Assembly: GCA_942493275.1 (NCBI GenBank) | Contig: OW818687.1 | Location: 1,857,918-1,921,917, forward strand | Source of the DNA: an uncultured Coriobacteriia bacterium | GTDB taxonomy: Bacteria > Actinomycetota > Coriobacteriia > Anaerosomatales > PHET01 | Direction: 5' to 3' | Length of the DNA: 64,000 bases | Shown: piece after piece, positions 13,746 through 47,141 of the stretch | Layout: each line of letters begins with the position of its first letter | Position numbering within the stretch: the first letter of the stretch is position 1 | Notes under the pieces: generated by a model | What the model saw: only the letters and a program-made list of their open reading frames with translations | What the model was told of the DNA's origin: nothing | The model's database searches: none | Program-made: the position numbers and the translations under genes

Positions 13746-13746
13746 C

Positions 13747-23080: not shown

Positions 23081-23103
23081 CCGGTACTCTCGGTTCAGCG
23101 TTC

Positions 23104-23146: not shown

Positions 23147-23202
23147 GGCGACAACGGGACATACAATGCACCCAGGTTCATAGGGCCAACCGGGGGGTTC
23201 AC

Positions 23203-24924: not shown

Positions 24925-24930
24925 CCGCAC

Positions 24931-27069: not shown

Positions 27070-27132
27070 CGTCACTCCAGTCACCGGCGGGTGTCACGCT
27101 GTTCATACCCGTGCGGTGCATGGCAGGGTGCA

Positions 27133-27141
27133 TGCTAGAAT
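27133..27141 (+). promoter_or_regulatory. Extended -10 promoter candidate TGCTAGAAT for the amidase gene
   Basis: TGn + TAGAAT, 58 nt upstream of the ATG at 27199. The same GCTAGAAT octamer recurs at 54649 and 63342. Confidence 0.5.
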
Positions 27142-27198
27142 GAGCGCGCGGCGTCGCCGGGCGCCACCGATCTGCAACCTTCCGGCGCGAGGTGCCAC

Positions 27199-28875: not shown

Positions 28876-28946
28876 GATACCCGCCCGTGTTAGACTGAAG
28901 TGACGTACGAGCCCTCTTTGGCTCGCCATGTGCAGGGAGTCGTAGC

Positions 28947-31199
28947 ATGAGTCGTAGCAGCCTGACATGTCGTCGCGCCCTTAACGCGGCGCTCGCCCTC
29001 TCGCTTCTTGCGAGCCTTTTCGTGGCACCGGTCAGCGCCGGCGCTGCGTATCCTTCGTTTCAGTTCACCGGTGCGGGCTACGGCCACGGCATCGGCCTGT
29101 CGCAGTACGGATCCAAGGGCTGGGCCGAGCACGGCAAGACCGGCTCGTGGATCGCGACGTACTACTACCCGGGCAGCAAGATCGGCACCGCCGACACGCG
29201 CACGATGTACGTGAACCTCGACGCGGACGCCAACTACCGCAGCACCTCGTCCGGCTACAACTCCGGGTACACCCGCTCCACCTGGCGCATCCGTCCGGGG
29301 TTCGTCGGCGGAAAGCTCAAGATCAACGGCGTCGAACGCCCCGACAGCACCTACACCTTCACGGCGACCACCTCTGGTGGAAGCCCCGCGATGAAGGTGA
29401 CCAATAGCGGCGGCACCGTGATAGGCACCTACACGGGGACCTTGCTGGTCGAACCGGCCAGCACGTCTCAGTGGCTGCTACAGGTCGTCGACGCCAGCGG
29501 CGCCTTCGACCACACCTACGTTCGCTATCGCGGGCGCATGCAGGTCAGGGTCAACAGCAGCGGAAAGCTCAAGCTGCTCAACAAGCTCTCGATGAGCGAG
29601 TACCTCAAGGGAGTCATTCCTCGCGAAACCCCGGCATCGTGGCACATCGAGGCGCTGAAGGCGCAATCCATCGTTGCCCGCTCCTATGCGTACGTGAGCA
29701 GCGGTGACCTCTACTGCACAACGTGGAGCCAGGTCTACAACGGTCACTCCCGAGGAGACCGTGCCGCTCCCACGATGCACGAGGACGATCGCTCGAGCGC
29801 GGCCGTCGATGTCACGAACAACCAGTACGTGACCTACAACGGATCCGTCATCCAGACCTACTTCCACAGCTCGTCGGGCGGCCATACCGCAAACATCGAG
29901 GACGTGTGGCCGGGCACCGGTCAGCCTTCGAGCTCGTACCCGTACCGCAAGGGCGTCTCGGACCCGTACTGCGCAGGTCCGTACGACCCCTGGTCCGATG
30001 CGCCCACGTACGACGGCATGGTGCTCGCGAACAAGATCAAGGGCTACGTGAGCGGCGAGCCGTCCGGCGCGGGCAGCACCGTGTACGTGAAGTCCCTCGC
30101 GCTCGAACGCGTGTGGCCCTCGGGCTTCGTGAAGACCGTCGATATCACGTGGTCCAACGGGGCGGTCACGAGCAATGTCGCCGGCGACACGTTCCGCTCG
30201 GCGCTCGGTCTTCGCAGCACCAAGTTCTTCGTCAACGGGAAGTTCAGCAGGATCGCCTTGGGTGATCGCTACGACACTGCTGTGGCTATTTCGAAGCAGA
30301 CATACCCCTCCGCAGGGCTCGCCAAGGGCGCCGTCATCGTCAACGGATCCAACGACAAGTTCCCTGACGCCCTGACCGCGGCGGCTCTCGCAGGCACCGT
30401 CGACGGCCCCGTGCTGCTCGTCTCGGGCTCCACTCTGCCGGGCGCCGTGGCCAACGAGCTCAAGCGACTCGGCGTGACAAAGGCCTACGTGGTCGGCGGG
30501 ACGGCGAGCGTTCCCGCAGCCACGTTCAACGCAGTCAAGGCAATCGTCCCCACAACCAAGCGTCTTGCCGGTAGCGACCGTTACGGCTACGACCGTTATG
30601 GGACGGCTGCGAGCGTGGCCATGGAGATGAAGGTGCTTGCACCTTCGACCAAGGTGCTCGTCGCCACCGGCGAGAACTGGCCGGATGCCGCAGTGGCCGC
30701 TGGCGTCGCGGCCGGATCGAAGCGCCCGCTGCTACTGGTTCGCAAGGACGCGATGCCGAGCGGCACCGTGTACGCCCTGCGCGATCTCGGAGCCACCGAG
30801 AGCGCTGTCTTTGGCGGTGCGAACGCGATCTCTTCGCGCACGATCGCGACGCTCGTACGCGAGACGGGCGAGTCCGCGCCCACCAAGCGATTCGGCATGA
30901 CCGGCGGTCGCTACGACGTCGCCGTCGAGGCCGCGAAGTGGAGTGTGTCGACGTTTGGGTACACGCTCAGCACCGTCTACATCGCCTCCGGGCAGACGTT
31001 CCCCGATACGGTCACCGGTGGCGTCCTGGCGGGCAAGAACAAGCACCCGCTGCTTCTGACGCCTGCAAAGGATCCGGCGTCCGCGACGTGCGGCTACCTG
31101 GCTGCGAACCGGGCGACGGTCGCCAATGTCACGGTGATCGGCGGACCACTCGCCGTCTCGGACGCGTGTGCGTCGACTATTGCGAGCTACGCGTACTAG
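28947..31199 (+). CDS. SpoIID/LytB-domain protein (lytic-transglycosylase type) with a C-terminal CWB2 triplet
   Basis: Contains GAGYGHGIGLSQYG, MSEYLKGVIPRE..ASW..EALKAQSIVARSYA, TW.QVY.G and YFHSSSGGHTANIEDVW. CWB2 units begin RIALGDRYDTAVA, RLAGSDRYGYDRYGTAA, GGRYDVAVEAA. Confidence 0.9.
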   Translation: MSRSSLTCRRALNAALALSLLASLFVAPVSAGAAYPSFQFTGAGYGHGIGLSQYGSKGWAEHGKTGSWIATYYYPGSKIGTADTRTMYVNLDADANYRSTSSGYNSGYTRSTWRIRPGFVGGKLKINGVERPDSTYTFTATTSGGSPAMKVTNSGGTVIGTYTGTLLVEPASTSQWLLQVVDASGAFDHTYVRYRGRMQVRVNSSGKLKLLNKLSMSEYLKGVIPRETPASWHIEALKAQSIVARSYAYVSSGDLYCTTWSQVYNGHSRGDRAAPTMHEDDRSSAAVDVTNNQYVTYNGSVIQTYFHSSSGGHTANIEDVWPGTGQPSSSYPYRKGVSDPYCAGPYDPWSDAPTYDGMVLANKIKGYVSGEPSGAGSTVYVKSLALERVWPSGFVKTVDITWSNGAVTSNVAGDTFRSALGLRSTKFFVNGKFSRIALGDRYDTAVAISKQTYPSAGLAKGAVIVNGSNDKFPDALTAAALAGTVDGPVLLVSGSTLPGAVANELKRLGVTKAYVVGGTASVPAATFNAVKAIVPTTKRLAGSDRYGYDRYGTAASVAMEMKVLAPSTKVLVATGENWPDAAVAAGVAAGSKRPLLLVRKDAMPSGTVYALRDLGATESAVFGGANAISSRTIATLVRETGESAPTKRFGMTGGRYDVAVEAAKWSVSTFGYTLSTVYIASGQTFPDTVTGGVLAGKNKHPLLLTPAKDPASATCGYLAANRATVANVTVIGGPLAVSDACASTIASYAY

Positions 31200-31487: not shown

Positions 31488-31901
31488 ATGACCATGAGAC
31501 GCGTGGCGTTCGCTTCTTGTTGTCTCGCCCTGTCGGCAATTGTCGCGACGGTCATCTCCGCGTACTCGGCATCCGCCGATCTCACCCCGCCACCGAGTGG
31601 CACGTCGACTGACTGGCCCAAGAACGAGTATGGCGTCACGTATGGCAGCGGTGGAGAGGCTGTCTCATATGAGGATGAGCCAGATCTCATCAAGGTCGAG
31701 GCAACGAACGGCAAGGTGGGGTACTGCTACCGAACCGACCTGGAGGGACCGGAGCCGTCATCCCCGGCCGCGGCGGTCGCGCAGCAGAAGGCGAGAGGGG
31801 GCAGGTCCGTCGTCATCCCGGTATATCAGGTGGACGGCGTCACTCAGATCGGGTCATTCGTGATCAGCCATGACCCTCGGCTCTCGATTGAGGTGCGCTG
31901 A
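31488..31901 (+). CDS. Small secreted hypothetical protein (137 aa)
   Basis: GGGGAG lies before the ATG at 31488. Signal peptide MTMRRVAFASCCLALSAIVATVISAYSASA. No family motif recognised. Confidence 0.55.
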   Translation: MTMRRVAFASCCLALSAIVATVISAYSASADLTPPPSGTSTDWPKNEYGVTYGSGGEAVSYEDEPDLIKVEATNGKVGYCYRTDLEGPEPSSPAAAVAQQKARGGRSVVIPVYQVDGVTQIGSFVISHDPRLSIEVR

Positions 31902-31916: not shown

Positions 31917-31950
31917 ACCGGCCCGGGAGGCGATTGCCTCCCGGGCCGGT
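31917..31950. terminator. Bidirectional stem-loop between convergent genes
   Basis: Perfect 15-bp stem ACCGGCCCGGGAGGC / GCCTCCCGGGCCGGT with loop GATT, followed by GTTGCTTGTT on the + strand. It sits between the stops at 31901 (+) and 31984 (-). Confidence 0.7.
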
Positions 31951-31983: not shown

Positions 31984-33717
31984 CTAGTGCAGGCAGTTGG
32001 CGACCGCGTTGCGCACGGTGACCGGTACCACGCTGGCGCCGCCGAAGAAGTGCACCGAGTTGATGCTGTCGGCATTCGCGGCGAGCTTCGCAGACGTGGG
32101 CGAAGGCAGAGGCGCGGTCGTAGCCGTCAGAAGCATGACGGTGTCGAGCTGGCCGAGAACGGGGCCTGCCGCCAAGGCGTCGGGGAAGTTCATGCCGGTT
32201 GTGACACCGACCCCGTCCCAGCCCATGCCGTACGTGCTCACGCCGATCTGGGCGACCTGCGCCGCCGTATCGAAGCGTGAGCTACCTGCCACGCGGGTGA
32301 CCTGCGACGAGCCGAGCTTGGTCTTCAGGCTGTTCTCGATGGTGCTGGGAACGGCGTTGGTGCCGCCGCAGATGTAGACGGCGGTCACCGTCTCGGGAAG
32401 GCTGACCGTGCCCGCGGTCGGGTTGGCCAACAGGACGGGCACGCCGGCCGCCGCGGAGATCGGTGCCGCGCCGAGGGCATCCGGGAAGTTCATGCCGGTG
32501 GCGACGAACGCGGTTCCGGAGTACGAGGGTCCGAGGATCTCAATGGTCTCCTCGGCCACCATGTAGGCGGTCGCAAAGCGGCTCGCGCCGGCGATGCGCT
32601 CGACCCCGTCGGCGCCCACCTTGGCCTTGAGTGCGTTCTCGACGGCCGCGGAAACGGCGTTGGTGCCGCCCAGCACGTAGGCCTTCGTGGCACCGAGGCG
32701 CGTGATTTCCGCCCCTACTTCGGCGGGGAGGGTGCCCTTCTGCGTGAGAAGGAGCGGGCCGTTGACAGCTCCCGCGAGACCGGCGCCACCCAGGGCGTCA
32801 GCAAAGCTCTCGCCGGTGGCGATCACGACAGTGTCGGCGCTAGTGAATGCGGCCTTTGACGCCGCTACCGCGGTGCCGTAGCGGCCCTGACCCTCGACCG
32901 CCGTCAGTCCGGTCAGACCGGTGACGGTCACCTTCGTGCTTGTCTCGGGAGACCAGTGCCCCTGGGAGCATCCGGCTTTGAAGTAGATCGTATGGGTGCC
33001 GACGGACAGCGACGAAGTTGAGAAGCTCGAGCTGCTCGACAACGTGCCATCGAGGCTTGAGCGCCACTGGTAGGCGTTGATGCTATGACCAAGAGAGCTG
33101 GTGCCAGAGCCCGAGAAGTTGACGGTGTCACCCTTGACGGGCGTCGTGTCGCTGATCGAGCCGATGCTCGCGCTGACGCTGTCGGCAGGAGGCGCCGTGA
33201 TGGTGGCACGGAAGTACTCGTAGTCCTCGATGTACTCATTCCAGTCGTCCCACAGGACGGCGTAGACCTCGTAGCGGCCCGAGGATATCTGCCACCCGCT
33301 GGTTGAAAGGTTGGTGCTCGCCGTCTGCGAACCGTTCACGTAGCTACCGGTTCCATAGACGGCGAGTATTTCATCGGTGGTGGCGTCGACGATCCAGAGT
33401 TCAAGCAGGTAGTCCTGCCAACCGTCAGGGTCGCTGCCGGTCGCCTGGACGTAGATGCTGTTGCCCCGAGGATACGAGTACGTCGCCCCGTTCGTGTGTG
33501 AATCAAGCCACACATACCCCTGGTAGAGAGCGGCTTGAGAGACTCCGCCGCCCAGCGACTTCGCCGCTTGTGCGCGCGCGGCGGTCACGGGCAGAGGCTG
33601 CAGAGCGCCGGCTGCCGTTGGCTCAGCTGCGAACGCTGTACCTGACAAGATGACCAACATACAGACAGTGGCCGCAGCAAGCAGCGACAGCCGACTACGC
33701 AAGAATGACCTTTCCAC
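31984..33717 (-). CDS. Secreted protein: N-terminal beta-sandwich region, PKD-like domain, C-terminal CWB2 triplet
   Basis: GTG start after GGAGGGGG. Signal peptide ...ILSGTAFAAEP. PKD-like segment GDTVNFSGSGTSSLGHSINAYQWRSSLDGTL...GTHTIYFKA. CWB2 units begin GQGRYGTAVAAS, RIAGASRFATAY, RVAGSSRFDTAA. Confidence 0.82.
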   Translation of the reverse strand: MERSFLRSRLSLLAAATVCMLVILSGTAFAAEPTAAGALQPLPVTAARAQAAKSLGGGVSQAALYQGYVWLDSHTNGATYSYPRGNSIYVQATGSDPDGWQDYLLELWIVDATTDEILAVYGTGSYVNGSQTASTNLSTSGWQISSGRYEVYAVLWDDWNEYIEDYEYFRATITAPPADSVSASIGSISDTTPVKGDTVNFSGSGTSSLGHSINAYQWRSSLDGTLSSSSSFSTSSLSVGTHTIYFKAGCSQGHWSPETSTKVTVTGLTGLTAVEGQGRYGTAVAASKAAFTSADTVVIATGESFADALGGAGLAGAVNGPLLLTQKGTLPAEVGAEITRLGATKAYVLGGTNAVSAAVENALKAKVGADGVERIAGASRFATAYMVAEETIEILGPSYSGTAFVATGMNFPDALGAAPISAAAGVPVLLANPTAGTVSLPETVTAVYICGGTNAVPSTIENSLKTKLGSSQVTRVAGSSRFDTAAQVAQIGVSTYGMGWDGVGVTTGMNFPDALAAGPVLGQLDTVMLLTATTAPLPSPTSAKLAANADSINSVHFFGGASVVPVTVRNAVANCLH

Positions 33718-33790
33718 CCAGGACCCCCTCCTCGACCGAACATGACTGACCCCAGTCTCTCTGCAGGGGTCGGCATGGTCAAGGGAGAAA

Positions 33791-36031
33791 TTACCTGCCG
33801 GAATTCATCGCAGCGAGAACCTGGGCACCGACGTCCGTTGACACCGCGACCTGCCCTCCCACCACATAGCAGCGCACACTCGTCCCAGCCTGTCCGTTCA
33901 CAACGTCGGTAGCTGCGGTGGAGAGCGTGGAGGGCGCGGTCAGCAGCAGCGGCGCGCGCAGCCTCGCCGAGAGCACGCCTGCGGTCAGCGAGTCCGGGAA
34001 GGTGCGTCCGCCAGCCACCACGAAGCGATCCCCGAGCATCCCATCGGCAAGAGACGCCTCGGCGACGGCTGCGGCGGTCGAGTATCGGTCGGCGCCGCTG
34101 ATGCGCGTGGGTGCGGGGAGGCGCCGGAACACGGGAGCGCCCACCGCCGTGTCGTCGCCTATCACGATGGTGCGGGTCACCGCGAGCGAGGCGAGCGCAG
34201 AGGCGGTCTCCGGCGGCAGCCACGTGCGCTCGGTCAACAGGATCGGGCGGTTGCGATAGGCGGCCCAGCCCGCGACCGCCGAACCGTCGGCAAACGAGCG
34301 CCCGGTCACCACGATGGCGGCGTCGGGCTGCCCCGCAACACCCGCAAGCCTGCGAGCGATGCGGTTCGCGGTGTCGTAGCGGTTGGCCCCCGAGATGCGC
34401 TCGATTGCGGTCTTCGGCAGCGCCGCCCGCACGCCCGTGGCTACCGAGCCCGCAAGCGCACGCTGACCGCCCACGAGTACCACGCGCGTCGGTGCAAGCC
34501 GCTTGAGTTCGGCCGCGGTGGCGGAGCTCAGACCGCCCGCCGAGGAAAGCAGCACCGGACCGTCGAGAGCGTAGGCGAGAGGTCCCCCCGCGAGGGCATC
34601 GGCGTAGTCCGCGGCGGATGCGACCACCACGGTCTTGGCGCCAACCGGGAACGCCTCCTTCGACACCGCGACCGAGGTGGCGATGCGGTCGCCGCCCGAG
34701 ACGCGCTTCACATGCGGCGAGAACTCGGCACCCAGCGGTCCGCCGTCACCCGAGAGATAGAGCTTCAGCCCAAAGATCGATGAGCCGCTCGTCCACTCGT
34801 TCAAGACGAACGCCGCATCGTCAGTTCCCCCGCGCACGACCTGCGGGTTCTGGTAGATCGCCTCGGGTACATCGGGGGAGACGATGGTCCCTTCGGCGGG
34901 CCAGCTGACACCGCCATTGGCCGAGTTCCGCTCCACCAGCAGACCGCCGTCGTCGGTGTAGTCGCGGTCGCCGTCTCCGACTCCGCGCGTGCCGCCCTCG
35001 ATGGTGAGTGCGCGCAGGTCACCGGACTCGTCGAAACGGAAGGTGCAGACGTCGAAGAAGTGGTCGGTGCGTGCGACTTGCGATGCTGTCCACGCACCCC
35101 CGTCGAGCCGCATGAACCGGTGGGCGTACGATGTCGGCCCGGCTCCCGAGCCAACCGTGAACATCAGGCACGGATCGCCGTCGGGCGCGGGTTTCACGGT
35201 CGGGTTGTTGGTGTTGGCCGAGCCGCTCGCGTACACCCGCGTCGTGCTATCAGCTGTGGCCTTCGTGAGCGGGAGCGTCACCGGCGTGTCGCTCGTGTTA
35301 CGCCACACGCCATTTGTGTCACGACGCATGTAGTGCGCGTCGCGCCGCGCCCACGAGGTCCCCGTGAAGTAGAGGTCCCAGTCGAGCGCCACGAAGGCCG
35401 CCAGGACTTCCCCGTCAACCCCTTCCGAGAAGTTCGCGTAGAAGCCCCAGCGCCCGTCCTTGTCGAGGATGCGGGTGGGCGAACTCCAGGTCGCTCCGTC
35501 ATTGGTGGAGCGACGTACCACCCAGTCGAGCGATCCGTCTCGGTAGAAGAGGTCGATCGTGCCGTCGTCGTGCACGACGGGTTGCGGGTAGGTGAACGAC
35601 TGCGCGATCGCGGGCAGGTCCTGCCATGCCGATATGTCGTGTGGGCGCAACGAGCGCGCGTGACGGAGCGGCGAGTGGTGTCCGCCGTAGAAGACGTGAA
35701 GGTAGCCGGCGCGGTCCACCACGAGCGCGGGTGCGCCGTGCATGTCGGTCGCGAGCGGGTTGTCGCCGACGCGGTAGGGGCCCGACCAGTCGCCGGTCGT
35801 GTGGTCGTAGGCACGCGCGTAGGCGTCGAGCCCGGGACCCTGGTAGACGACGATGGTCTGATCGGCATCGCGGACGGCCTGCGGGTGGATCGCCCACTCC
35901 TGGTAGATGCTGTCCTTCGAGCCGTCGTGAGCGAAGTAGGGGCGGCTTGCCGCCCCCGCCGAGGGAGCGCCGGCTACCGACAGCGCAAGCGTCAGCACGA
36001 TTGAGGCAACTGCGTGTGGGGCGCGGGTCAT
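33791..36031 (-). CDS. Secreted BNR/Asp-box beta-propeller (BNR-4 / sialidase-like fold) with a C-terminal CWB2 triplet
   Basis: Signal peptide ...SVAGAPSAGAAS. Asp-box STNDGATWS and the related SANGGVSW. CWB2 units begin RVSGGDRIATSVA, RISGANRYDTAN, RISGADRYSTAA. Confidence 0.78.
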   Translation of the reverse strand: MTRAPHAVASIVLTLALSVAGAPSAGAASRPYFAHDGSKDSIYQEWAIHPQAVRDADQTIVVYQGPGLDAYARAYDHTTGDWSGPYRVGDNPLATDMHGAPALVVDRAGYLHVFYGGHHSPLRHARSLRPHDISAWQDLPAIAQSFTYPQPVVHDDGTIDLFYRDGSLDWVVRRSTNDGATWSSPTRILDKDGRWGFYANFSEGVDGEVLAAFVALDWDLYFTGTSWARRDAHYMRRDTNGVWRNTSDTPVTLPLTKATADSTTRVYASGSANTNNPTVKPAPDGDPCLMFTVGSGAGPTSYAHRFMRLDGGAWTASQVARTDHFFDVCTFRFDESGDLRALTIEGGTRGVGDGDRDYTDDGGLLVERNSANGGVSWPAEGTIVSPDVPEAIYQNPQVVRGGTDDAAFVLNEWTSGSSIFGLKLYLSGDGGPLGAEFSPHVKRVSGGDRIATSVAVSKEAFPVGAKTVVVASAADYADALAGGPLAYALDGPVLLSSAGGLSSATAAELKRLAPTRVVLVGGQRALAGSVATGVRAALPKTAIERISGANRYDTANRIARRLAGVAGQPDAAIVVTGRSFADGSAVAGWAAYRNRPILLTERTWLPPETASALASLAVTRTIVIGDDTAVGAPVFRRLPAPTRISGADRYSTAAAVAEASLADGMLGDRFVVAGGRTFPDSLTAGVLSARLRAPLLLTAPSTLSTAATDVVNGQAGTSVRCYVVGGQVAVSTDVGAQVLAAMNSGR

Positions 36032-36067
36032 GCGGGTCTCCTCGGAAGATGGTGTCCGAGGACCATT

Positions 36068-37261
36068 CTACGCTCCTGCGCGCACGGCTTCCTGGGCGAG
36101 CAGCTCGGTGAGCGCGCGCAGCATCCATGCCTCGGCCCAGCGCAGGTACGGTGCGGTGCGACGATGCCCGTTCCACTCGCCGTGGATGAAGGTACCGTCG
36201 GCGTTGCGCATGTTCTCGACGGTCCACTCGGCTGCCGTGCGGGCTCGCTCAAGCGCGCCGGGGAAGCGGTCGGCGAACAGCGCCGGGCACAGCACCGACT
36301 CGGCGCACGAATGGATGTCGAGCGCTCCCGGCCGGTCCGGCGCCTGGTTTGGACGCCCGTGGCCGAGAAGCACGCGCTCGTAGTACTCCCAGCCGCGTTC
36401 GAGCGCGGCACCGGCCTCGGCGTAGCCTGCGTTCTCGAACGCGAACAGGGACCGCAGCACGTAGCCGGTGTGGTAGTTGTCGATCTGGCTCACGGTGCGC
36501 TGCGGCTCGGCCCAGTACTCCCACGAACCGTCATCGAACCGCTCGTTTACGGTGAAGCGCATCGCGCGTGCGGCGAGATCCTCCCACTCAGGTTCGCCGA
36601 ATGCGCGAGATGCGCGCAGCAGGTACTCGGCGGCCATGAGTGAGGCGTTGTGGACCTGGAAGTCGTCGAGCGGCGTGTAGGAGAAGCAGAGCGTGCCGTC
36701 GGCGAGTTCAGTGCGGTTGAGGCCCTCGCTGAGGAACACGGCCGCGCCACGGGCAGCGTCGAGAGCGCGCTCGTCGCCGGTCTTCTCGGCATGGTCGAGA
36801 AGGGCCTGTGCGATGGTCGAAGTGACGACCGCCGAGGGGGTGCCGGTCGGGACAGTGATGCGCGTGTACCAGTCGAACGGGTAGCCCCAGCTGATGCCGG
36901 GATAGCCGGTCGAGGGGTGGTCGACCAGCCATGAGGCGGCCTCGCGGGCGCGCTCGAGCGAGCCGAGGATACCGAGATCGTGCTGGCGCAGTCGTGCGGC
37001 GAGCACGACACCAACGCCCTTCGCGTTCACCTGCGGCTTCATCCCGAGCGCCCGGCGCGTGGCGATCGGCCAGCGGTGACGGGCGCTGCGAACGGCGCGG
37101 GGCAGGAGGCCGGGGCGATCTTTGCCGCTCGCATCCACGGTAAGCTTCCGGTAACGCTCGTCGCCGAGGATGTCGTATGGGTCCCAGCCCGCGAGGCCGT
37201 TGGTGTCGAACCAGGCCGAGAGACGGTCGAGGGCGGAGGCGACGGGGTCGACAGAGGTCAC
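36068..37261 (-). CDS. Conserved hypothetical protein of the polysaccharide operon (Trp/Tyr/Glu-rich; possibly an alpha/alpha-toroid fold)
   Basis: 397-aa ORF whose GTG start overlaps (GTGA) the stop of the upstream GT4 gene. No signal peptide. The fold guess rests on composition only. Confidence 0.5.
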   Translation of the reverse strand: MTSVDPVASALDRLSAWFDTNGLAGWDPYDILGDERYRKLTVDASGKDRPGLLPRAVRSARHRWPIATRRALGMKPQVNAKGVGVVLAARLRQHDLGILGSLERAREAASWLVDHPSTGYPGISWGYPFDWYTRITVPTGTPSAVVTSTIAQALLDHAEKTGDERALDAARGAAVFLSEGLNRTELADGTLCFSYTPLDDFQVHNASLMAAEYLLRASRAFGEPEWEDLAARAMRFTVNERFDDGSWEYWAEPQRTVSQIDNYHTGYVLRSLFAFENAGYAEAGAALERGWEYYERVLLGHGRPNQAPDRPGALDIHSCAESVLCPALFADRFPGALERARTAAEWTVENMRNADGTFIHGEWNGHRRTAPYLRWAEAWMLRALTELLAQEAVRAGA

Positions 37262-38514
37262 GCGCGGGCTCCTTCGTGGATGGCGATGGCATCGCGATAC
37301 GCCGACTCGACGAGCACGACGACGCGGGATGAATCGAACTCGGAGGCGGCCTCGCGAGCCGCTGCCGAGCGATCGCGAGCGGAGGCGGGGTCGGCCAGCA
37401 CGCTCTCGATGGCGGCGGCGAGTCCGGCGGGGTTGTCAGGGGGCGCAAGCACGCCGAGCCGGCCCTGGCCGAGCAGGTCGGCGACGGCGCCGGTGCCGGT
37501 AGCGACCACGGGCACGCCGGCGGCGAAGGCCTCGATGACGACCCGAGATTGGCCCTCTCGGACACGGGAGGGGAGTACGAACACGTCGGCGGCGTGCAGC
37601 CAGCGCACGACCTCATCCTGGCCCACGGCGGTCGAGACCACGAAGGAGCCGCCATCGGCGCTCCAGCGGTCGCGCAGCTGCTGTACGGTCAGGTCGATCT
37701 CAGGGCCCACGAGCGCAAGGGTCGCGGTGGGGTTGCTTTCGACGACGACGGCCATCGCGTCGACCAGATCCTCGACGCCTTTGCTCTGCGCGAGCCAGCC
37801 CACGTAGAGCACGAGCGGGCGCGCGCCGGGGTCGTCGGTGGCAAGAGTGCCGGGATCGGTCGCGAACACCTCGACGTCGATGCCGTTAGGGACGAATCGC
37901 GGAGTCGTACTCTGCACGAGTCCCGCGAGCGCCTCGGCGGCATCCGGGCTCACCGCGAGCACCACGTCTGCTGCCGCGAGGTTCTCGGCAGCCAGACGCT
38001 GGCGCGGGCCGGGGCCCTCGTCGCGGAAGCTCGACAGCGAGTGCGAGGTGATGAGTGCGGGAGCCGATGCGCCGGCGAGGCGGCCGTAGTACGGGCGCAT
38101 CTCGGCGTGGTGGTAGTGGATGACGTCAGGTGCGAAGTCGGCGATCGCGCGGTGCAGTCCCACGGCGTGTGCCGCGATCGACTCCGGCTTCCACCCGCAC
38201 TCGCGAGTGGTGGTCCGGGAGCGGAACGCGCGCAGGTAGGCGCCGAGCCCGCGGCTGCCGAGCGCCTTGGCGAGCGCGCCGCGGCGCGACACCGGGCGGT
38301 AGAGGCGGCCGAACTCAGCGCGTGCTGCTGGGCCGGGGCTCGCGTTGTCGGCGTAGACGGCGACCTCGTGGCCGCGCGCTTCGAGACTGCGGGCGAGGTT
38401 GGAGACGTGTGCCGCCACGCCGCCGGTGGTGTTGCCGCCGTCGTCAGCGGCAACGGGGCCGACGAGGAGCACCCGCAACGGGGCGCCGGAGGTGCGGGAG
38501 TGCGCCTCAGGCAT
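37258..38514 (-). CDS. Glycosyltransferase family 4
   Basis: Start at MPEAHSRTSGAPLRVLLVGP (the ATG at 38514 overlaps the upstream stop by 8 nt). Contains GG....HV..LA..L..RGHEV and a C-terminal PS..EG....IEA.A.G.PVV block. The ORF-track extension to 38862 is rejected. Confidence 0.85.
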   Translation of the reverse strand: MPEAHSRTSGAPLRVLLVGPVAADDGGNTTGGVAAHVSNLARSLEARGHEVAVYADNASPGPAARAEFGRLYRPVSRRGALAKALGSRGLGAYLRAFRSRTTTRECGWKPESIAAHAVGLHRAIADFAPDVIHYHHAEMRPYYGRLAGASAPALITSHSLSSFRDEGPGPRQRLAAENLAAADVVLAVSPDAAEALAGLVQSTTPRFVPNGIDVEVFATDPGTLATDDPGARPLVLYVGWLAQSKGVEDLVDAMAVVVESNPTATLALVGPEIDLTVQQLRDRWSADGGSFVVSTAVGQDEVVRWLHAADVFVLPSRVREGQSRVVIEAFAAGVPVVATGTGAVADLLGQGRLGVLAPPDNPAGLAAAIESVLADPASARDRSAAAREAASEFDSSRVVVLVESAYRDAIAIHEGARA

Positions 38515-40699
38515 CGGCGGCCTTAACCGGGAGCACGACGTCGACGGGGGCTCCGGTGCGCGCGGCCTCGAGTGCGGCGAGCGCCACGATGGTGCCGCGC
38601 ACGCCGTCGACCACGCCCATGCCGAGCGTCGCCTTGCCCTGGCAGGCCTCGACGAACTCGGTGAGGCAGGCGAGGTGACCCTTGTCGATCTCCTTGGTCT
38701 CGAGCCCCTTCTCGGATCCGGCGCCCGCGACCGTGGTGACGCGGTAGTCGTCGATGGCGAAGGCGGCCTTGTCGCAGAAGACCTCGATGCGCTCCTTGGG
38801 AAACGCCGAGGAGCCGTTGCCGGCATAGAACACTTGGCCGATGGAGCCGTCAGCGAACTCAATGGTGATCGCGAGGTTGTCGTAGGCGGCGTACTCGGCG
38901 CCCAGGCCCCCGAGCGCGCTCGCGCTCACTCGCGTGGGCTCGGCGCCGGCGAAGTACGTCAGCAGGTCGAAGAAGTGGCAGGCCTCGCCGACGATGCGTC
39001 CGCCGCCCTCGATGGGGTCGTAGACCCAGTGGCTCGGCTCCTTGTAGCCGGCGTTCACGCGGTACGTCATCATCTTCGGGCCGCGACGCTTCTCAAGCGC
39101 GCGCTTCACGACCACGGAGTGCGGCGAGTACCGGCGGTTGAAGCCGACGGTCAGCAGAACGCCCGACTCGGCGACGGCGGAGGCGACGTCGGCGCACTCC
39201 TCGGCGGTGAGACCGAGCGGCTTCTCGACGAACACGTGCTTGCCCGCGCGCGCGGCAGCAGCCGCGAGCGAGGCGTGCGAGTCGTGACGGGTCGAGATGA
39301 TGACGGCGTCGATCTTGTCGTCGGCGATGATCTGGTTGTCGTCGGTGGTCGCGTACTCGGCGCCGGCCTTCTTCGCCGAGGATGCGGCCGAGGACCCCCG
39401 CTTCGTGGCGACCCCGCGGATGGAGGCGCCGGGAATCCGCATGAGGTTGGGGATGTGGAAGGCGCGGGCGAACGAACCCGCCCCGATGACGCCAAAGCTG
39501 ACGTCGCCGGCGATAGCGCCCTGACGCATCTGCACGATGCGCGGGGCCGGCTCGCCGACGGGCTCATCGGCCGGGGTGTAGGCGAGGAGCGTGGCGACCG
39601 CGGCGCCGGTGGCGGCGAGCGCGGAGGTGTAGGCGGTCTCGGCCTCGTCGATGCCGAACACCTTATCGACCAGCGGCGCGAGCTTGATGCGGCCGTCGGC
39701 GGCGAGGCGCAGGAACTCGTCCATATTGCGCTTCTCGGTCCAACGGACGTAGGCGATCGGGTAGTCGAGCCCGTCCTCCTCGTAGCTCGTGTCGTAGCGG
39801 CCGGGGCCGTACGAACGCGAGATGAGGAGGTCCTGCTCGCGGTGGTAGAACGTCTTGCGCTCGAGCTCCATGCCGACGTCGCCCACGATGACGACCTTAC
39901 CGCGCTCGCGACACATCTCGAACGCCTGGTTCACAACCGCACTCGACTTGGTGCCCGCATAGATCAGCACCGCATCAAGACCGACGCCTTCCGAGAAGCG
40001 CATCGCGGCGTCGACCGGGTCCACGTCGCTCGATACCACGCCGTCATGAGCGCCGAGCTCGCGGGCGAGCGACACGCGGTCGGCGGCGAGGTCGAAGCCG
40101 ATGACGCGGCAGCCCGCCGAGGTCAGGATCTGGCACCCGATCTGGCCGAGCAGACCAAGGCCCACCACGCCAACACGGTCGCCGAGTCCAACCTCGGCAC
40201 GGCGCACGCCCTGCATCGAGATGGCGCCGAGCGTGACGAACGCCGCCTCGACGGTGTCGAGTCCCTCAGGCACGGGGATGCACAGGTTCACCGGCACCGT
40301 GATGTACTCGGCGTGTACGGCGTAGCCGCCGCCTGCGCACGCGACCACGTCACCGGGCTCGAAGCCCTCGACGCCGGCGCCGACAGCCGTGACCACGCCG
40401 GCTGCGCTGTAGCCGAGCGGGCGCAGGTCTCCGCCGCCGCCCTGGACCGCCTTCGCGGTCGCGCCCACGCCATCACTGATGGCCTTCTTGATGGCCTTGC
40501 GCACGAGTGCGGGGTTACGCATGACGCGCTCGATCGGCGTGCCGGACTTGGCTGCGGCGCCCTTGACGCCGGAGCCCTCGGTGCCGGTGCTGATCAGCGA
40601 GTGGGCGGTGCGGACGAGGACTTCGCCCGGACCCGGCGCGGGTGCGGGGACCTCCTGCACGTTGACGCCGGCGGGACCGCCGAGGAAGACCTGCTTCAT
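38507..40699 (-). CDS. Bi-domain oxidoreductase: N-terminal medium-chain (Zn-ADH-like) dehydrogenase fused to a C-terminal Gfo/Idh/MocA oxidoreductase
   Basis: GGAGG lies before the ATG at 40699. The N-terminal half has GEVLVRT..S.IS.GTE and VGVVGLGLLGQ. The C-terminal half has FGVIGAGSFAR and HVFVEKPL. Confidence 0.85.
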   Translation of the reverse strand: MKQVFLGGPAGVNVQEVPAPAPGPGEVLVRTAHSLISTGTEGSGVKGAAAKSGTPIERVMRNPALVRKAIKKAISDGVGATAKAVQGGGGDLRPLGYSAAGVVTAVGAGVEGFEPGDVVACAGGGYAVHAEYITVPVNLCIPVPEGLDTVEAAFVTLGAISMQGVRRAEVGLGDRVGVVGLGLLGQIGCQILTSAGCRVIGFDLAADRVSLARELGAHDGVVSSDVDPVDAAMRFSEGVGLDAVLIYAGTKSSAVVNQAFEMCRERGKVVIVGDVGMELERKTFYHREQDLLISRSYGPGRYDTSYEEDGLDYPIAYVRWTEKRNMDEFLRLAADGRIKLAPLVDKVFGIDEAETAYTSALAATGAAVATLLAYTPADEPVGEPAPRIVQMRQGAIAGDVSFGVIGAGSFARAFHIPNLMRIPGASIRGVATKRGSSAASSAKKAGAEYATTDDNQIIADDKIDAVIISTRHDSHASLAAAAARAGKHVFVEKPLGLTAEECADVASAVAESGVLLTVGFNRRYSPHSVVVKRALEKRRGPKMMTYRVNAGYKEPSHWVYDPIEGGGRIVGEACHFFDLLTYFAGAEPTRVSASALGGLGAEYAAYDNLAITIEFADGSIGQVFYAGNGSSAFPKERIEVFCDKAAFAIDDYRVTTVAGAGSEKGLETKEIDKGHLACLTEFVEACQGKATLGMGVVDGVRGTIVALAALEAARTGAPVDVVLPVKAADA

Positions 40700-40818
40700 G
40701 AAGACCTCCGAGGTTTCATTCGGGTGGGTGGAGACGCGCGATGTCGTTCCCCCCAAGCACGCCGGATTCTACCACTCAAGGGAGATTACCGGCCGCTCGA
40801 GCGACGTGCGTCGAAGGG

Positions 40819-42414
40819 TCAGGACGAGCGCCGGATGAGGCGCTTTGCGACGTTGCCGATGGCCTGCCGCTCGCTCGGGCGCACCGCGCCCGTGAGCAGA
40901 GCGAGCACCGTGTAGACCACGACGCCGAGGGCCGCCTCGGCGAGCAACAGCCACACCGAGTCCTTCGGTGTGGCGAACACGGTCACGAGCAGCAGCCACA
41001 TCGCGGCGCTCGAGCCGGCGATGCGCGCCACGTCGAGCCACGGGATGTGCCACGCCATGTAGGGACGGCTGCGCAGCCACGTGACGCTCAAGAGCAGCAC
41101 GTAGGAGGCGAGCGTCGTCCACGCTGCGGCCATGTAGCCGTAGCGTGGTACGAGCACGAGGTTGAGACCGATCTGGAAGAGGGCCGCGATCAGCGTGTTG
41201 GTCATGATGATCTTCGACTTCTTGTGCAGGCTCACGCCCACGCCCGCGATCTGCGTGAGTCCGTAGCACAGCGCGCCTGCGGCCACGATCGCAAGGATCG
41301 GGTACGCCTCCTGATAGCGCTCGTTGGTGAAGACGATCATGAACTCCTCGGAGGCTGCGGCGATACCTGCGAGAAGCGGCACCGTCACCAGCAGGAAGTA
41401 GCGCGTGAACTGCGTCTGGACCTTCTCGGCCAGGTGCTGGCCCTGCTTCTCGAACGTCTGCACCATCACCGGGCCCATGGTGAGCGTCAGCGGGGCGATG
41501 AACAGCTGCATGATCTTGTCGCCCAGGCCGTAGGTGACCGAGTAAAGGCCGACTTCGGCGGCGTCTCGGAAGGCCTGGATGATGTAGCGGTCTGAGAGCA
41601 CCAGCGCCCACGATGAGATGTTCGCGAGCATGATCGGCACGCCGTATGAGAGGTACTCGGCTGCGAGTTCGCGGTTCGCCTCCTTGGGCGAGAGCGAACC
41701 TTCCTGCGCGACGCGCCGGAGCACGATCGGCAGTACGAGCAGGTTGCCGCTCAGCGTGCCCACGAGGATGCCGAGGGCGCCCGCCGAGGTCTTTGCGACG
41801 AGCGCGACGGCAATCACCGTGGTCACGATCGTGACCGTGTTCGCGATGCGCGCGAAAGACTTCGCGCGGTTGGCGGCACGTTGTATTTGTTGGAGAACGG
41901 TGACGAGTGACGCGACGAGCATCGAGGCGAGCGCGACCGGCACGAGGCGCACCAGCCCCGGCTCCAGATGGGGGAGCGCGACGAGCACGATGGCGCCGAG
42001 AACGAAGATCGCGACGAACAGCGAGGCGAGCGCGACCCACAGGGTGGTCGCCGTGAACTGGTCGCCTCGGTCTTCCTTCTCGCACGGCCAGTAGTAGCGG
42101 ATGACTGAGGGCGAGATCCAGCCCACGGCGAGCGTGGTCGCGAGCGAGGTGGCCGACGAGATCAGGTAGAAGAAGCCGTAGTCGGCCGGGTCGATGTTGG
42201 CCGTGAAGACCGGCACCGTGACGAGCGACGTGAGTGCCGGCAGGAACCGCACCGGGAAGTAGGTGAGCGCGTCAGAGCCCGCACCCCGAAGGATGCGCTC
42301 GAGGTTCACCGTCGGCAGCGGGGCCTCGGTGGGGGCTGGTGTCTTCTCGTCGCTCACGGATGGAATCGTATGCCGAGGCGGCCTACGAGCGCTTCTCCGT
42401 CGCCAAAGCGTCAT
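40819..42414 (-). CDS. Wzx-type polysaccharide flippase (MOP/PST family)
   Basis: 12 or more hydrophobic helices across the protein, with typical polysaccharide-biosynthesis-protein topology. The start is ambiguous (ATG 42414, GTG 42357 or GTG 42309) and none has a clear SD. Confidence 0.8.
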   Translation of the reverse strand: MTLWRRRSARRPPRHTIPSVSDEKTPAPTEAPLPTVNLERILRGAGSDALTYFPVRFLPALTSLVTVPVFTANIDPADYGFFYLISSATSLATTLAVGWISPSVIRYYWPCEKEDRGDQFTATTLWVALASLFVAIFVLGAIVLVALPHLEPGLVRLVPVALASMLVASLVTVLQQIQRAANRAKSFARIANTVTIVTTVIAVALVAKTSAGALGILVGTLSGNLLVLPIVLRRVAQEGSLSPKEANRELAAEYLSYGVPIMLANISSWALVLSDRYIIQAFRDAAEVGLYSVTYGLGDKIMQLFIAPLTLTMGPVMVQTFEKQGQHLAEKVQTQFTRYFLLVTVPLLAGIAAASEEFMIVFTNERYQEAYPILAIVAAGALCYGLTQIAGVGVSLHKKSKIIMTNTLIAALFQIGLNLVLVPRYGYMAAAWTTLASYVLLLSVTWLRSRPYMAWHIPWLDVARIAGSSAAMWLLLVTVFATPKDSVWLLLAEAALGVVVYTVLALLTGAVRPSERQAIGNVAKRLIRRSS

Positions 42415-43573
42415 ACACGCCGAGAAGCGCGGGTGCGTCCGCTTCGAGGTTCCAGCGGTCGAGAACCGCCTTGCGACCTGCGGCTGCGGCGGTGCGGGCG
42501 ACCTCGGGGTCACTCAGCTCGAGTGCCTCGCGCGCGAAGTCAGCCGCGTCGCCGGTGCGAAACACGCCGCCCGCCTGCGCCTCGCGCACGATGCGTGCGA
42601 GCGGCAGGCAGTCGCTGACGAGGACCGGCCGCTCGAGCGCCATGTACTGGAACAGCTTGTGCGGCACGGTGGCATCGGTGTGTGGCGAGCGGTGGTGCGG
42701 CACCAGCGCGAGCGTTGCGGTGCGGATGTACTCCATTGCCGCGTCCTTCGACAGCCAGCCGGTGAACTCGACCGCGTCGCTGAGGTTCAGCGCGGCGGCC
42801 TGTGCCTTGAGCTCGGTGAGGGTGTCACCGTCGCCGACGATCGTGAGGCGTGCGTCGGGACGCTTCGCGAGGATGGCCGGCATTGCCGCGACGGCGGTGT
42901 CGAGACCGCGATGCGCGGCCACGCCGCCCACGTACACGAGGCGCGGGCCCGCCGAGAAATCGAGTGCGGGGGGCTCGGGAAGCGCGAGCGCGAGGGGCTC
43001 GGTGTTGCCGAAGACCGCGATCTTGGCGGGGTCGGCTCCGAGACCGGCGAGTCGCTCGCGTGCCTCGTCGACGACTACGATCACGCGGTCGGCGTTCTCG
43101 ACCGACCAGCGCTCGAGCTTCTCGGCGCGCTCGGGGGAGAACAGGATGCGGTCCGCGCGACGGCGACGCCACAAGCGAAGGGCGGCGGGGTAGTTCTCGT
43201 GGAAGTCGAGCACGACCGGCACGCCGGTCTCGCGCCCGGCGAGAATCGCCGACTTCGCGTACGGCAGGTCGTGCACGTGGAGCGCCTCGGCGCCGTGCAC
43301 GCGCACGAGGTCGACCATGCCCTGGCGCCACGAAGGCGAGTCGAGCGTGGTGAGGAAGCGCCACGAGTCGAATTTGCGCGCGAGCGTGTTGCCCGGGTGG
43401 ACGCGATGGCGGACGGCGGTGACGGAGCCGACGGTCTCGACCTCGGCCTGCCCCGGCTCGCGGCGACACAGCACCAGGATCTCGTGGCCGGCTGCGGCGA
43501 GCGCGTCGGCCTCCTTCTCGATGCGGATGTCGGGTGGGAACTTGTGGTTGGCGTGCACCATGCCAATGCGCAT
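42383..43573 (-). CDS. Glycosyltransferase family 4
   Basis: Start at MRIGMVHANHKFPPDIRIEKEA.AL..AGHEI. GT-B C-terminal block F.GW........Y......L.P......D...P.KLFQYMA..RPV. Confidence 0.85.
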   Translation of the reverse strand: MRIGMVHANHKFPPDIRIEKEADALAAAGHEILVLCRREPGQAEVETVGSVTAVRHRVHPGNTLARKFDSWRFLTTLDSPSWRQGMVDLVRVHGAEALHVHDLPYAKSAILAGRETGVPVVLDFHENYPAALRLWRRRRADRILFSPERAEKLERWSVENADRVIVVVDEARERLAGLGADPAKIAVFGNTEPLALALPEPPALDFSAGPRLVYVGGVAAHRGLDTAVAAMPAILAKRPDARLTIVGDGDTLTELKAQAAALNLSDAVEFTGWLSKDAAMEYIRTATLALVPHHRSPHTDATVPHKLFQYMALERPVLVSDCLPLARIVREAQAGGVFRTGDAADFAREALELSDPEVARTAAAAGRKAVLDRWNLEADAPALLGVYDALATEKRS

Positions 43574-43641
43574 GGGGGTCCTTTCGGGAGGTGGCGGTTC
43601 GACAACGGACGGGGCTGTTATGGCTCCTCGGCGCGCTGCCC

Positions 43642-43650
43642 TGCTAGTAT
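43642..43650 (+). promoter_or_regulatory. Extended -10 candidate TGCTAGTAT placing the transcription start at the GTG of the next gene (leaderless candidate), in an 84-bp divergent region
   Basis: The hexamer TAGTAT ends 7 nt before the GTG at 43658, with no SD between them. Confidence 0.4.
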
Positions 43651-43657
43651 CCATTCC

Positions 43658-44998
43658 GTGGAAGAGAACCAGCGGCGAAACGTGCTCATTGTAGCCTACG
43701 AGTTCCCTCCCTCGGCGGGCGGGGGCGTGCAGCGCCTCGCCAAAATGGTGCGCTACCTGCCCGATTCGGGGTGGACACCGCACGTGCTCGCGGCCACGCC
43801 CGTGTGGGGTAGGCCCCAGGACGAGAGCCTGGTCGAGCAGGTCGCCTTTGCCGAGGTCACGCGTCTGCCCAACAGGAGCATCGGCGCGTCGGTTGCGCGC
43901 GCCCTGGCACCGGTGAAGGCGCTTCGCCGCCGAGGTGGCGGCAGCTCGGCAGGTGCAGGCGTCCCCGCAAAGCCCGCGGCCGCGGCAGGTGCTACCGGGA
44001 TCCCGGCCAGCACCCGGATCGTGCGCAGGCTCGGCATCGACACCGCCGAGCTGTGGGCGCGCAAAGTTCCCGCCGAGGCGCTTCGGCTCCATCGCAAGAT
44101 CGGCTTCGACGCCGTCATCGCTTCCGGACCTCCGCACTCAGCGCTGGTCGCCGGTGCGCGCGCCGCCCGCGAGATGGGCGTGCCGTTCATCGCCGACTTC
44201 CGCGACGCCTGGCGCGAGAATCCCGACTTCCGCCGTCCCGAGTCGCCGGATCAAGACGCTCGCTCGCTCGCGCTCGAGCGTGAGGTTCTCTCGGTGGCAG
44301 ACGCCGTGGTCGCGGTGAGCCAGCCGATAGCGGATGAGACGCTTGAGGAGGGCGCCACCACGGCGATCGTTGTCCCCAACGGCTTCGACCCCTCCGATCT
44401 GCCGCGCCATCGCGTGCAGCGCGGGCCGCTCACCATCGCGTTCATGGGCCGCTTCTACGGCAGCACCGACCCCACGCCGTTCTTCGACGGCGCGGCTGAG
44501 GCGGTTCGCCGAGGAGGCCCCGCGGCTGACCTGCACATCGAGGTCCTCGGCCAGATGTCCGATTTCGTGCGCGACGCCATCGAATCACGAGGGCTTGACG
44601 GCCACGTCACCTATCACGGGTACCTGCCGCACGCCCAGGCTCTCGAGATCGTGTCGCGCTCCGACGCGGGGCTCGTGGCACTGCGCGATCATGCGGGCGG
44701 CGAGGCCAACTACACCGGAAAGATATTCGAGTACCTCGGGGTCGGCCTGCCGATCCTGCTCGTGGGACCGGAGATGGGCGTCGCAGCACAGCTTGTCCGA
44801 GAAGCCCGGGCCGGCATCGCGGTGCCGTACTCGCGCCCCGACCGAGTCGCCGACGCACTTGAAGAGCTCGCGCGCCGCAAGGTGGACGGGTTCTCGGTCG
44901 TGGACCCGGTCGCCGAAGTCGTCGCACGTTTCGACCGCCGTACGCAGGCTGCGCGCATCGCCGCGCTGCTCGACGAGGTGGTGAGCGCCCGTGCGTGA
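43658..44998 (+). CDS. Glycosyltransferase family 4
   Basis: Contains VEENQRRNVLIVAYEFPPSAGGGVQR and a GT-B C-terminal half. The upstream 465 codons of the ORF-track entry are antisense to two real genes and are rejected. Confidence 0.8.
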   Translation: MEENQRRNVLIVAYEFPPSAGGGVQRLAKMVRYLPDSGWTPHVLAATPVWGRPQDESLVEQVAFAEVTRLPNRSIGASVARALAPVKALRRRGGGSSAGAGVPAKPAAAAGATGIPASTRIVRRLGIDTAELWARKVPAEALRLHRKIGFDAVIASGPPHSALVAGARAAREMGVPFIADFRDAWRENPDFRRPESPDQDARSLALEREVLSVADAVVAVSQPIADETLEEGATTAIVVPNGFDPSDLPRHRVQRGPLTIAFMGRFYGSTDPTPFFDGAAEAVRRGGPAADLHIEVLGQMSDFVRDAIESRGLDGHVTYHGYLPHAQALEIVSRSDAGLVALRDHAGGEANYTGKIFEYLGVGLPILLVGPEMGVAAQLVREARAGIAVPYSRPDRVADALEELARRKVDGFSVVDPVAEVVARFDRRTQAARIAALLDEVVSARA

Positions 44999-47133: not shown

Positions 47134-47141
47134 CGAGAGAG

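Follow-up and report, generated by a model that had tools for sequence, protein, structure and literature searches.

Introduction

Anchoring of surface proteins through CWB2 repeats has so far been worked out in one Firmicute, Clostridioides difficile, where the ligand, polysaccharide II (PSII), is encoded beside the cwp genes. In C. difficile, PSII is bound by the CWB2 repeats, and cwp genes border the anionic polymer/cell wall glycopolymer (AP/CWG) locus and are interspersed with its genes (Willing et al. 2015, PMC4973711; Chu et al. 2016, PMC5065235). This locus includes the N-acetylmuramoyl-L-alanine amidase CD2784 and the cell wall binding protein CD2782, and its partial co-transcription has been demonstrated by reverse transcription PCR (PMC4973711, PMC5065235). 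Enzymes of secondary cell-wall polymer (SCWP) synthesis co-distribute with CWB2 anchors in Firmicutes (bioRxiv 10.1101/2025.04.02.646754). A second described system, as cited in PMC4973711, is csaAB-sap-eag of Bacillus anthracis, in which SLH domains bind pyruvylated SCWP. The subject of this report is a string of seven minus-strand genes, five attributed to polysaccharide synthesis and two encoding CWB2 proteins (the cargo genes), in a 64,000-nucleotide stretch of contig OW818687.1 from an uncultured Coriobacteriia bacterium (hereafter the window; approximately 67% G+C).

The original prediction held that the polymer genes and at least two cargo genes may be co-transcribed, and that this would be direct regulatory evidence of one system. 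We consider it likely that the string is a composite with several transcription units, whose cargo proteins would use the wall polymer encoded around them as ligand, and not a simple operon. The biosynthetic core, GT4a-Wzx plus oxidoreductase-GT4b-397aa, is conserved in related uncultured Actinomycetota, and the two cargo genes belong to a seven-gene CWB2 island. Co-transcription itself was partly upheld: there was no terminator-like structure between the genes, but conserved promoter signals were present at two junctions and the gene order was shuffled in relatives. Even so, co-transcription would be circumstantial evidence only, and a functional link is better argued from the neighbourhood of cargo and polymer genes, which recurs in rearranged form.

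The gene string and its junctions

The open reading frame (ORF) list and codon-position GC content revealed seven minus-strand ORFs between 43573 and 31984, all with a strong third-position GC bias (Table 1). This string and the domains originally stated for it were all found in the ORF list and by Pfam, with the exception of the PKD label of the last gene. The junctions could be read directly from the sequence and were as first described. The oxidoreductase stop and the GT4b start share an 8-nt overlap, ATGCCTGA (38507-38514), which was identical in the relatives L001 and L007, and GT4b and the 397-aa gene share a GTGA overlap (37258-37261), which was retained in L001, L003, L005 and L007. 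As both overlaps are conserved, they indicate that the oxidoreductase-GT4b-397aa module would be translationally coupled. The remaining gaps were 119 nt between the flippase and oxidoreductase genes (40700-40818), 36 nt between the 397-aa and BNR-CWB2 genes (36032-36067) and 73 nt between the two cargo genes (33718-33790). Seven co-oriented genes alone are no more than ordinary bacterial gene organisation.

The start of the flippase gene was the one junction that changed. An ATG at 42414 that overlaps GT4a does exist; however, codon-position GC of this extension was 0.53/0.79/0.53, which is non-coding-like, and third-position GC (GC3) rose to 0.87 after the GTG at 42357. Additionally, the flippase orthologues of L001 and L005 leave gaps of 25 nt and 14 nt, with conservation starting at LERILRGAG. 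On the grounds of codon-position GC and orthologue starts, GTG 42357 is most likely the flippase start, giving a 25-nt gap to GT4a. The NCBIfam HfsF-like match of the flippase scored below that model's cut-off. Orthologues in L001 showed 63% (GT4a) and 82% (oxidoreductase) amino acid identity by blastp.

Both cargo proteins contained three CW_binding_2 (PF04122) stretches (E = 6.2e-45 for BNR-CWB2 and 4.6e-45 for the second), as did the other five CWB2 proteins of the window, and BNR-CWB2 additionally matched BNR_4 (1.4e-25). Visual inspection of the translations revealed N-termini that resemble Sec signal peptides, MTRAPHAVASIVLTLALSVAGAPSAGA and VERSFLRSRLSLLAAATVCMLVILSGTAFA. The PKD domain claimed for the second cargo protein did not hold, as a relaxed Pfam search gave sub-threshold matches only, the best being PF00801 (E = 0.01, 16 bits against a cut-off of 23.5), and the assignment was rejected at Pfam thresholds. 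We therefore refer to this protein as PKD-like. Its Ig-like domain (residues ~172-266) is widely shared.

Gene order in related contigs

The relatives compared here are metagenomic contigs encoding 397-aa homologues of 51-93% identity, the named ones being Coriobacteriia or Actinomycetota metagenome-assembled genomes (MAGs), with orthology assigned by blastp. L001 and L002 (75% identity to the 397-aa protein) encoded the same five-gene core followed by a 110-nt gap, a co-oriented BNR-CWB2 gene and a convergent SpoIID-CWB2 gene, with no PKD-like gene. L174 (78%) had the 397-aa gene, a 35-nt gap, BNR-CWB2 and a convergent SpoIID-CWB2 gene, and L010 (93%) had the 397-aa gene, a 36-nt gap and BNR-CWB2. 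These closest relatives, L001, L174 and L010, which all encode BNR-CWB2 orthologues, were the only ones in which cargo was co-oriented with the polymer genes.

CWB2 genes were on the opposite strand in L003, L007 and L008. L003 (61%) carried SpoIID-, Amidase- and YkuD-CWB2 genes between the flippase and oxidoreductase genes; L007 (62%) carried divergent CWB2 genes upstream of the oxidoreductase gene, and its 397-aa gene was followed after 3 nt by a GT4c orthologue. The order in L008 (52%) was flippase-397aa-oxidoreductase-GT4b, then four convergent CWB2 genes. CWB2 genes were absent from this position in L005, L006 and L092: the 397-aa gene of L005 and L006 (55%) was directly followed by the genes for UDP-glucose 6-dehydrogenase (UGDH) and GT4c, with no CWB2 genes in view, and that of L092 (62%) by GT4c, with a convergent LCP-epimerase-DegT-hexapeptide-GFO-dehydrogenase-FabZ-MurA block as in the window. 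Thus order and orientation were conserved for the oxidoreductase-GT4b-397aa core and not for the CWB2 genes; the position and orientation of the island relative to the core vary between lineages. In every relative with visible CWB2 genes, in four arrangements, the oxidoreductase-GT4b-397aa module was next to these genes or at most one gene from them.

The seven CWB2 genes of the window form an island of ~19.9-36.0 kb that lies entirely inside the polysaccharide locus, as a 16-kb cargo block between the 397-aa gene and the UGDH-GT4c genes. The genes immediately after the 397-aa gene in L005, L006, L007 and L092 were 64-78% identical to the UGDH/GT4c genes of the window, which are ~17 kb downstream here. 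Since the 397-aa gene of these relatives runs straight into UGDH/GT4c orthologues, the most economical explanation is insertion of the CWB2 island into a polysaccharide operon that already existed, of which UGDH-GT4c would be the displaced continuation. The PKD-like CWB2 gene was absent at this position in L001 and L174, and its N-terminal part had no orthologue in the metagenome contigs, in which only the generic Ig-like domain was matched, so that no context comparison was possible for this gene; the protein appears to be lineage-specific.

Promoter-like elements

A scan for the two-hexamer sigma-70 consensus found no promoter in the gaps. As this strict model misses promoters of the extended -10 type, orthologous intergenic regions were compared instead. 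In the 119-nt gap, the extended -10 element TGGTAGAAT (P2) was present 72 nt upstream of the oxidoreductase ATG. The hexamer TAGAAT was found upstream of the oxidoreductase gene in all six loci compared (the window, L001, L003, L005, L007 and L008), and five of them also had the TGn extension. The element read TGGTAGAAT in the window, L007 and L008, TGATAGAAT in L001 and L003, and CGATAGAAT in L005. The region was otherwise unalignable among the six loci and the hexamer was kept regardless, with upstream neighbours that varied between the flippase gene, a divergent CWB2-YkuD gene, a divergent 254-aa gene and the 397-aa gene.

At the 36-nt junction, the stop codon (TAG) of the 397-aa gene forms part of a second TAGAAT (P3), which precedes the ATG of BNR-CWB2 by 39 nt. 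The hexamer preceded the BNR-CWB2 start in 4/4 loci, at -39 (window and L010), -38 (L174) and -36 (L001). In L001, with its 110-nt gap, the 397-aa stop codon is 73 nt further upstream of TAGAAT, which shows the hexamer to track the BNR start and not the stop. From the conserved -10 elements at the 119-nt and 36-nt junctions, the cargo genes probably have their own promoter.

TAGAAT occurred five times in the window, which is not above chance expectation. All five sites were in sense orientation and 5-120 nt ahead of the start of a gene or RNA, a zone that makes up 4.5% of strand-positions, and 7/10 TGnTAnnnT sites of the window were in this same zone. That the motif marks transcription starts has an internal control in one of the sites, where TGCTAGAAT ends 11 nt before a raiA-motif RNA match (Rfam RF03072, 155.6 bits; 54667-54907, plus strand). 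This RNA is followed by solute-binding and ABC-transporter genes and, ~4 kb on, by an S30AE hibernation-factor gene (58667-59257).

Taken over the window, separate promoters are predicted for UGDH-GT4c, Amidase-CWB2, SpoIID-CWB2, BNR-CWB2, the oxidoreductase module and the plus-strand GT4-Wzy pair. The flippase gene, GT4b, the 397-aa gene and the PKD-like CWB2 gene have none of their own on this predicted map. The 84 bp between GT4a and the divergent GT4 gene contain a near-palindromic element (43640-43652), with TGCTAGTAT on the plus strand and a GATACT-like sequence on the minus strand, and because it is near-palindromic the two divergent -10 elements may overlap. The GTG start of the plus-strand GT4 gene (43658) is only 8 nt past the hexamer, suggesting either that its transcript is leaderless or that the gene starts further on.

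Transcript folding and the shared terminator

The minus-strand transcript between 43700 and 31850 was folded in all its 44-nt segments, and z-scores were obtained against shuffles. The sole outlier was the very strong hairpin at 31917-31950, whose position agreed with the original prediction: a 15-bp stem with 13 G-C pairs folding at -38.6 kcal/mol, against a mean of -13.2 (sd 4.5), or z = -6.8. Neither the terminator scan nor the folding found a terminator-like site on the minus strand between 43573 and 31984. The gaps gave z = -0.35 (73 nt), -0.79 (119 nt) and -2.2 (36 nt), and the corresponding gaps in L001, L005 and L008 contained no terminator-like folds either. Nothing in the gap sequences would be expected to block read-through, though Rho-dependent termination cannot be judged from sequence. 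The second-strongest hairpin of the minus-strand transcript (40864-40907, -29.7 kcal/mol) lies ~45 nt before the flippase stop. It was rejected as a terminator ahead of the 119-nt gap, being inside the flippase coding region and without a U-tract.

The 7-bp inverted repeat in the 36-nt junction, with its 3' arm over the Shine-Dalgarno sequence, was present as described. Its fold (-15.9 kcal/mol, z = -2.2 against shuffles) is modest only, and no U-tract follows it. The stem was intact in L010 (93% relative), with two changes in the loop; the 5' arm was gone in L174 (78% relative), and L001 had no counterpart. The ribosome-binding site CCGAGGAG upstream of BNR-CWB2 was kept, and there was no compensatory change in the repeat. 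A conserved regulatory hairpin was thus rejected, as only the 93% relative retains the stem, and the repeat is probably not a conserved functional element. Speculatively, a start 6-8 nt past TAGAAT would leave the 5' arm partial in P3 transcripts and complete only in read-through ones.

Transcription of the string and alternative explanations

The composite reading would have three transcription starts: ahead of 43573 in the 84-bp divergent region, at the conserved extended -10 promoter P2 in the 119-nt gap, and at the conserved TAGAAT of P3 over the 397-aa stop codon. Three promoters and one terminator would yield nested transcripts, all probably ending at the hairpin at 31917-31950, since there is no terminator between the starts. 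The cargo genes would then be transcribed from P3 and, in addition, by any read-through out of the polymer genes. Having neither a recognisable promoter nor a terminator before it, the PKD-like CWB2 gene is most likely co-transcribed with BNR-CWB2.

The polymer, predicted to contain uronic acid and to be attached to peptidoglycan by the LCP enzyme, would probably serve the CWB2 triplets as ligand, as PSII does in C. difficile.

Several points weigh against this reading. P2 and P3 are promoters predicted from conserved -10 elements only, and P3 has no convincing -35 element and no TGn extension. The P3 hexamer contains the 397-aa stop codon in three of the four loci (window, L010 and L174), with only L001 separating the two, so that coding constraint could account for some of its conservation. 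On the minus strand, no U-tract follows the terminal hairpin. Binding of CWB2 triplets to this polymer is suggested by analogy. Finally, no Bac_transf or WecA-type domain, as expected of an initiating phosphoglycosyl transferase, was found in any scanned ORF of the window, so that the locus is not demonstrably complete; the enzyme may be encoded elsewhere in the genome.

A single operon, with one promoter upstream of 43573 driving all seven genes to the terminator and cargo expression depending on the polymer promoter, appears improbable to us. The co-orientation of seven minus-strand genes with two overlaps and gaps of at most 119 nt, the lack of terminator-like hairpins between them and the lack of a canonical sigma-70 promoter in the gaps by the consensus scan are all as this explanation would have it. 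However, an operon of this kind would have no internal promoter, and it is precisely at the 119-nt and 36-nt junctions that TGnTAGAAT/TAGAAT is conserved among relatives (P2 in 6/6 loci and P3 in 4/4, as predicted promoters); the motif is also found ahead of the raiA RNA and of other genes. Additionally, both the orientation and the position of cargo genes relative to polymer genes vary among relatives.

Equally improbable, in our judgement, are fully separate units, in which polymer and cargo genes would be insulated, for example by Rho-dependent or non-canonical termination, with the cargo genes transcribed only from their own promoter. A predicted P3 promoter does exist, and CWB2 genes are on the other strand in most relatives, so that shared transcripts are not required. 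Yet the 36-nt gap has no terminator-like structure, its sole hairpin being weak, unconserved and without a U-tract, and with the -10 element reaching into the upstream stop codon there is no space for an insulator.

We think it very unlikely that the adjacency is incidental, with a CWB2 island having landed in a recombination-prone locus whose polymer is not the ligand of these proteins, because, although locus gene order is highly shuffled among relatives and the core is without nearby CWB2 genes in some of them (L005 and L092), CWB2 genes adjoin the oxidoreductase-GT4b-397aa module in no fewer than four arrangements (window and L001; L003; L007; L008), all seven CWB2 genes of the window are inside the locus, and published precedent ties CWB2 repeats to a polymer encoded next door.

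The surrounding wall-polysaccharide locus

A Wzx/Wzy-type wall-polysaccharide locus that includes an LCP ligase spans the region between 9.4 kb and 48.4 kb and contains both a flippase (Polysacc_synt_3, 6.6e-19) and a Wzy-type polymerase (Wzy_C, 1.1e-23). Its flanks encode ATP synthase genes, MurA and FabZ on one side and methionine-salvage genes on the other. The five-enzyme set of its left arm resembles the WbpA/B/D/E/I route to UDP-2,3-diacetamido-mannuronic acid, which we presume to be its function.

Table 1. Features of the seven-gene string and of the surrounding locus, with positions in the window
Feature	Position	Strand	Basis and remarks
Left arm: nucleotide-sugar dehydrogenase, GFO oxidoreductase, hexapeptide acetyltransferase, DegT aminotransferase, UDP-GlcNAc 2-epimerase, then LCP ligase	9415-16407	+	Pfam
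GT4c	16404-17636	-	Pfam; convergent to left arm
UGDH, TuaD-like	17637-18937	-	Pfam, NCBIfam
TGCTAACCT element	19010-19018	-	Own predicted promoter of UGDH-GT4c
Five further CWB2 genes	19946-31199	+/-	CarboxypepD_reg-CWB2 (+), CWB2-YkuD (+), GSDH-CWB2 (-), Amidase_3-CWB2 (+), SpoIID-CWB2 (+); Pfam
Extended -10 motif	27133-27141		Upstream of Amidase-CWB2
Extended -10 motif	28888-28896		Upstream of SpoIID-CWB2
Strong hairpin terminator common to convergent units	31917-31950	both	T-rich tail only on plus strand
PKD-like CWB2 (cargo 2)	31984-33717	-	N-terminal domain, Ig/PKD-like domain, three CWB2 repeats; Pfam
BNR-CWB2 (cargo 1)	33791-36031	-	BNR_4 and three C-terminal CWB2 repeats; Pfam
Inverted repeat CCTCGGA/TCCGAGG	36040-36061	-	7 bp; 3' arm overlaps GAGGAG Shine-Dalgarno sequence
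P3, predicted promoter	36065-36070	-	-10 hexamer TAGAAT
397-aa protein	36068-37261	-	Weak Pfam GH88 match only
GT4b glycosyltransferase	37258-38514	-	Pfam GT4 domains
Bi-domain oxidoreductase	38507-40699	-	MDR/ADH_zinc_N and GFO_IDH_MocA fusion; Pfam
P2, predicted promoter	40766-40774	-	Extended -10
Wzx-type polysaccharide flippase	40819-42357, or 42414 with alternative ATG	-	Pfam Polysacc_synt_3/Polysacc_synt
GT4a glycosyltransferase	42383-43573	-	First gene of string; Pfam Glyco_trans_1_4/Glyco_trans_4_4; ATG preceded by GAAAGGA
TGCTAGTAT	43642-43650	+	Upstream of GT4-Wzy_C pair
Divergent GT4 and Wzy_C (polymerase/ligase-like) genes	43658-46379	+	Pfam; 84 bp from GT4a
Further GT4, to right of string	47100-48353		

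Three ORFs noted in the locus had no Pfam match. An ORF of ~224 aa (19171-19845, plus strand) with one predicted membrane helix and a Pro/Thr/Gly-rich linker sits just upstream of CarboxypepD_reg-CWB2, in the region divergent from the UGDH promoter. Another of ~137 aa (31488-31901, plus strand) has a signal-peptide-like N-terminus and a moderately coding-like GC3, and lies between SpoIID-CWB2 and the shared terminator. The third follows the Wzy_C gene (46378-47133, plus strand) and encodes a conserved protein of ~250 aa; L001, L005 and L008 have 240-263-aa genes, likewise without a Pfam match, in this same position, the likeness being one of position and length.

The 397-aa protein

An AlphaFold model of the 397-aa protein, built with 14 homologues, was an all-alpha (alpha/alpha)6 barrel with a pLDDT of 92.6. 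Foldseek placed it near AGE-family sugar 2-epimerases, GH76 and GH88 (TM ~0.6, 12-15% identity), and a profile search of the family against PDB sequences returned nothing useful. As the fold similarity is that of a generic (alpha/alpha)6 barrel, no specific enzymatic assignment was made. We regard the protein as cytoplasmic and carbohydrate-active, belonging with the biosynthetic genes and not with the cargo. A contig scan with this protein revealed three close actinobacterial relatives only, the other matches being distant Bacteroidota/Archaea homologues, which were set aside as irrelevant to CWB2. At 27-37% identity the family, which has no Pfam family of its own, is widespread in Bacteroidota, Ignavibacteriota, Balneolaceae and several archaeal MAGs (loci L015-L091).

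Comparison with known systems

The co-transcription claim amounts to a routine operon prediction, only partly upheld by the comparative data, and no new mechanism is revealed. The locus does offer a testable candidate ligand locus and a predicted promoter map. A further proposal, which we hold to be doubtful, is that the oxidoreductase-GT4b-(alpha/alpha)6 module installs the specific sugar epitope recognised by the CWB2 triplets of these Actinomycetota, as a functional analogue of CsaB pyruvylation for SLH domains, with read-through into BNR-CWB2 coupling the production of ligand and cargo in this lineage. If true, proteins outside the Firmicutes would be anchored by CWB2 repeats to a polymer for which there is a defined candidate for the module that determines the ligand.

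Judging by what is cited of csaAB-sap-eag, the B. anthracis locus is similar in that genes making or modifying the polymer ligand adjoin genes for non-covalently anchored proteins. It differs in that its anchor is SLH and not CWB2 and in its modification by the pyruvyl transferase CsaB, no csaB-like gene having been seen in the window. With Wzx/Wzy-dependent, LCP-attached secondary cell-wall or teichuronic-acid-type loci the window shares Wzx, Wzy_C, several GT4 genes, the TuaD-like UGDH and the LCP ligase. Unlike these, it has an embedded 16-kb cargo block and no initiating phosphoglycosyl transferase was found in it; two components of undefined role, the bi-domain oxidoreductase and the (alpha/alpha)6-barrel protein, also set it apart from typical Wzx/Wzy loci.

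The comparison of gene content with cwp/PSII of C. difficile revealed differences in host and chemistry. The window is from a high-GC uncultured actinomycetotal lineage, and it encodes a UGDH gene and a five-enzyme pathway of the diacetamido-uronic-acid type. Unlike in C. difficile, no pgm (pgm2) or manC domains were seen in the domain scans of the window. Neither SlpA nor SecA2, which accompany a cwp/AP-type locus, was represented: NCBIfam SlpA matches reached 43-69 bits against a cut-off of 650, through the CWB2 region only, giving no SlpA-type S-layer protein, and no SecA domain was present in any scanned ORF of the window.

The likeness to cwp/PSII lies in the arrangement. In both, paralogous triple-CWB2 genes are clustered or interleaved with glycosyltransferase, flippase, polymerase-like and LCP genes, and here GT4, Wzx, Wzy_C, UGDH and LCP genes flank the cluster of seven CWB2 genes on both sides. 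Amidase_3-CWB2 parallels the amidase CD2784. L,D-transpeptidase cargo is also known from C. difficile. An uncultured high-GC lineage of Actinomycetota, whose predicted polymer differs, shows the same genomic logic, and the movement of the cargo island around the same biosynthetic core in relatives supports the generality of anchor-protein genes beside polymer genes. Together, these likenesses suggest an actinobacterial counterpart to cwp/PSII of C. difficile.

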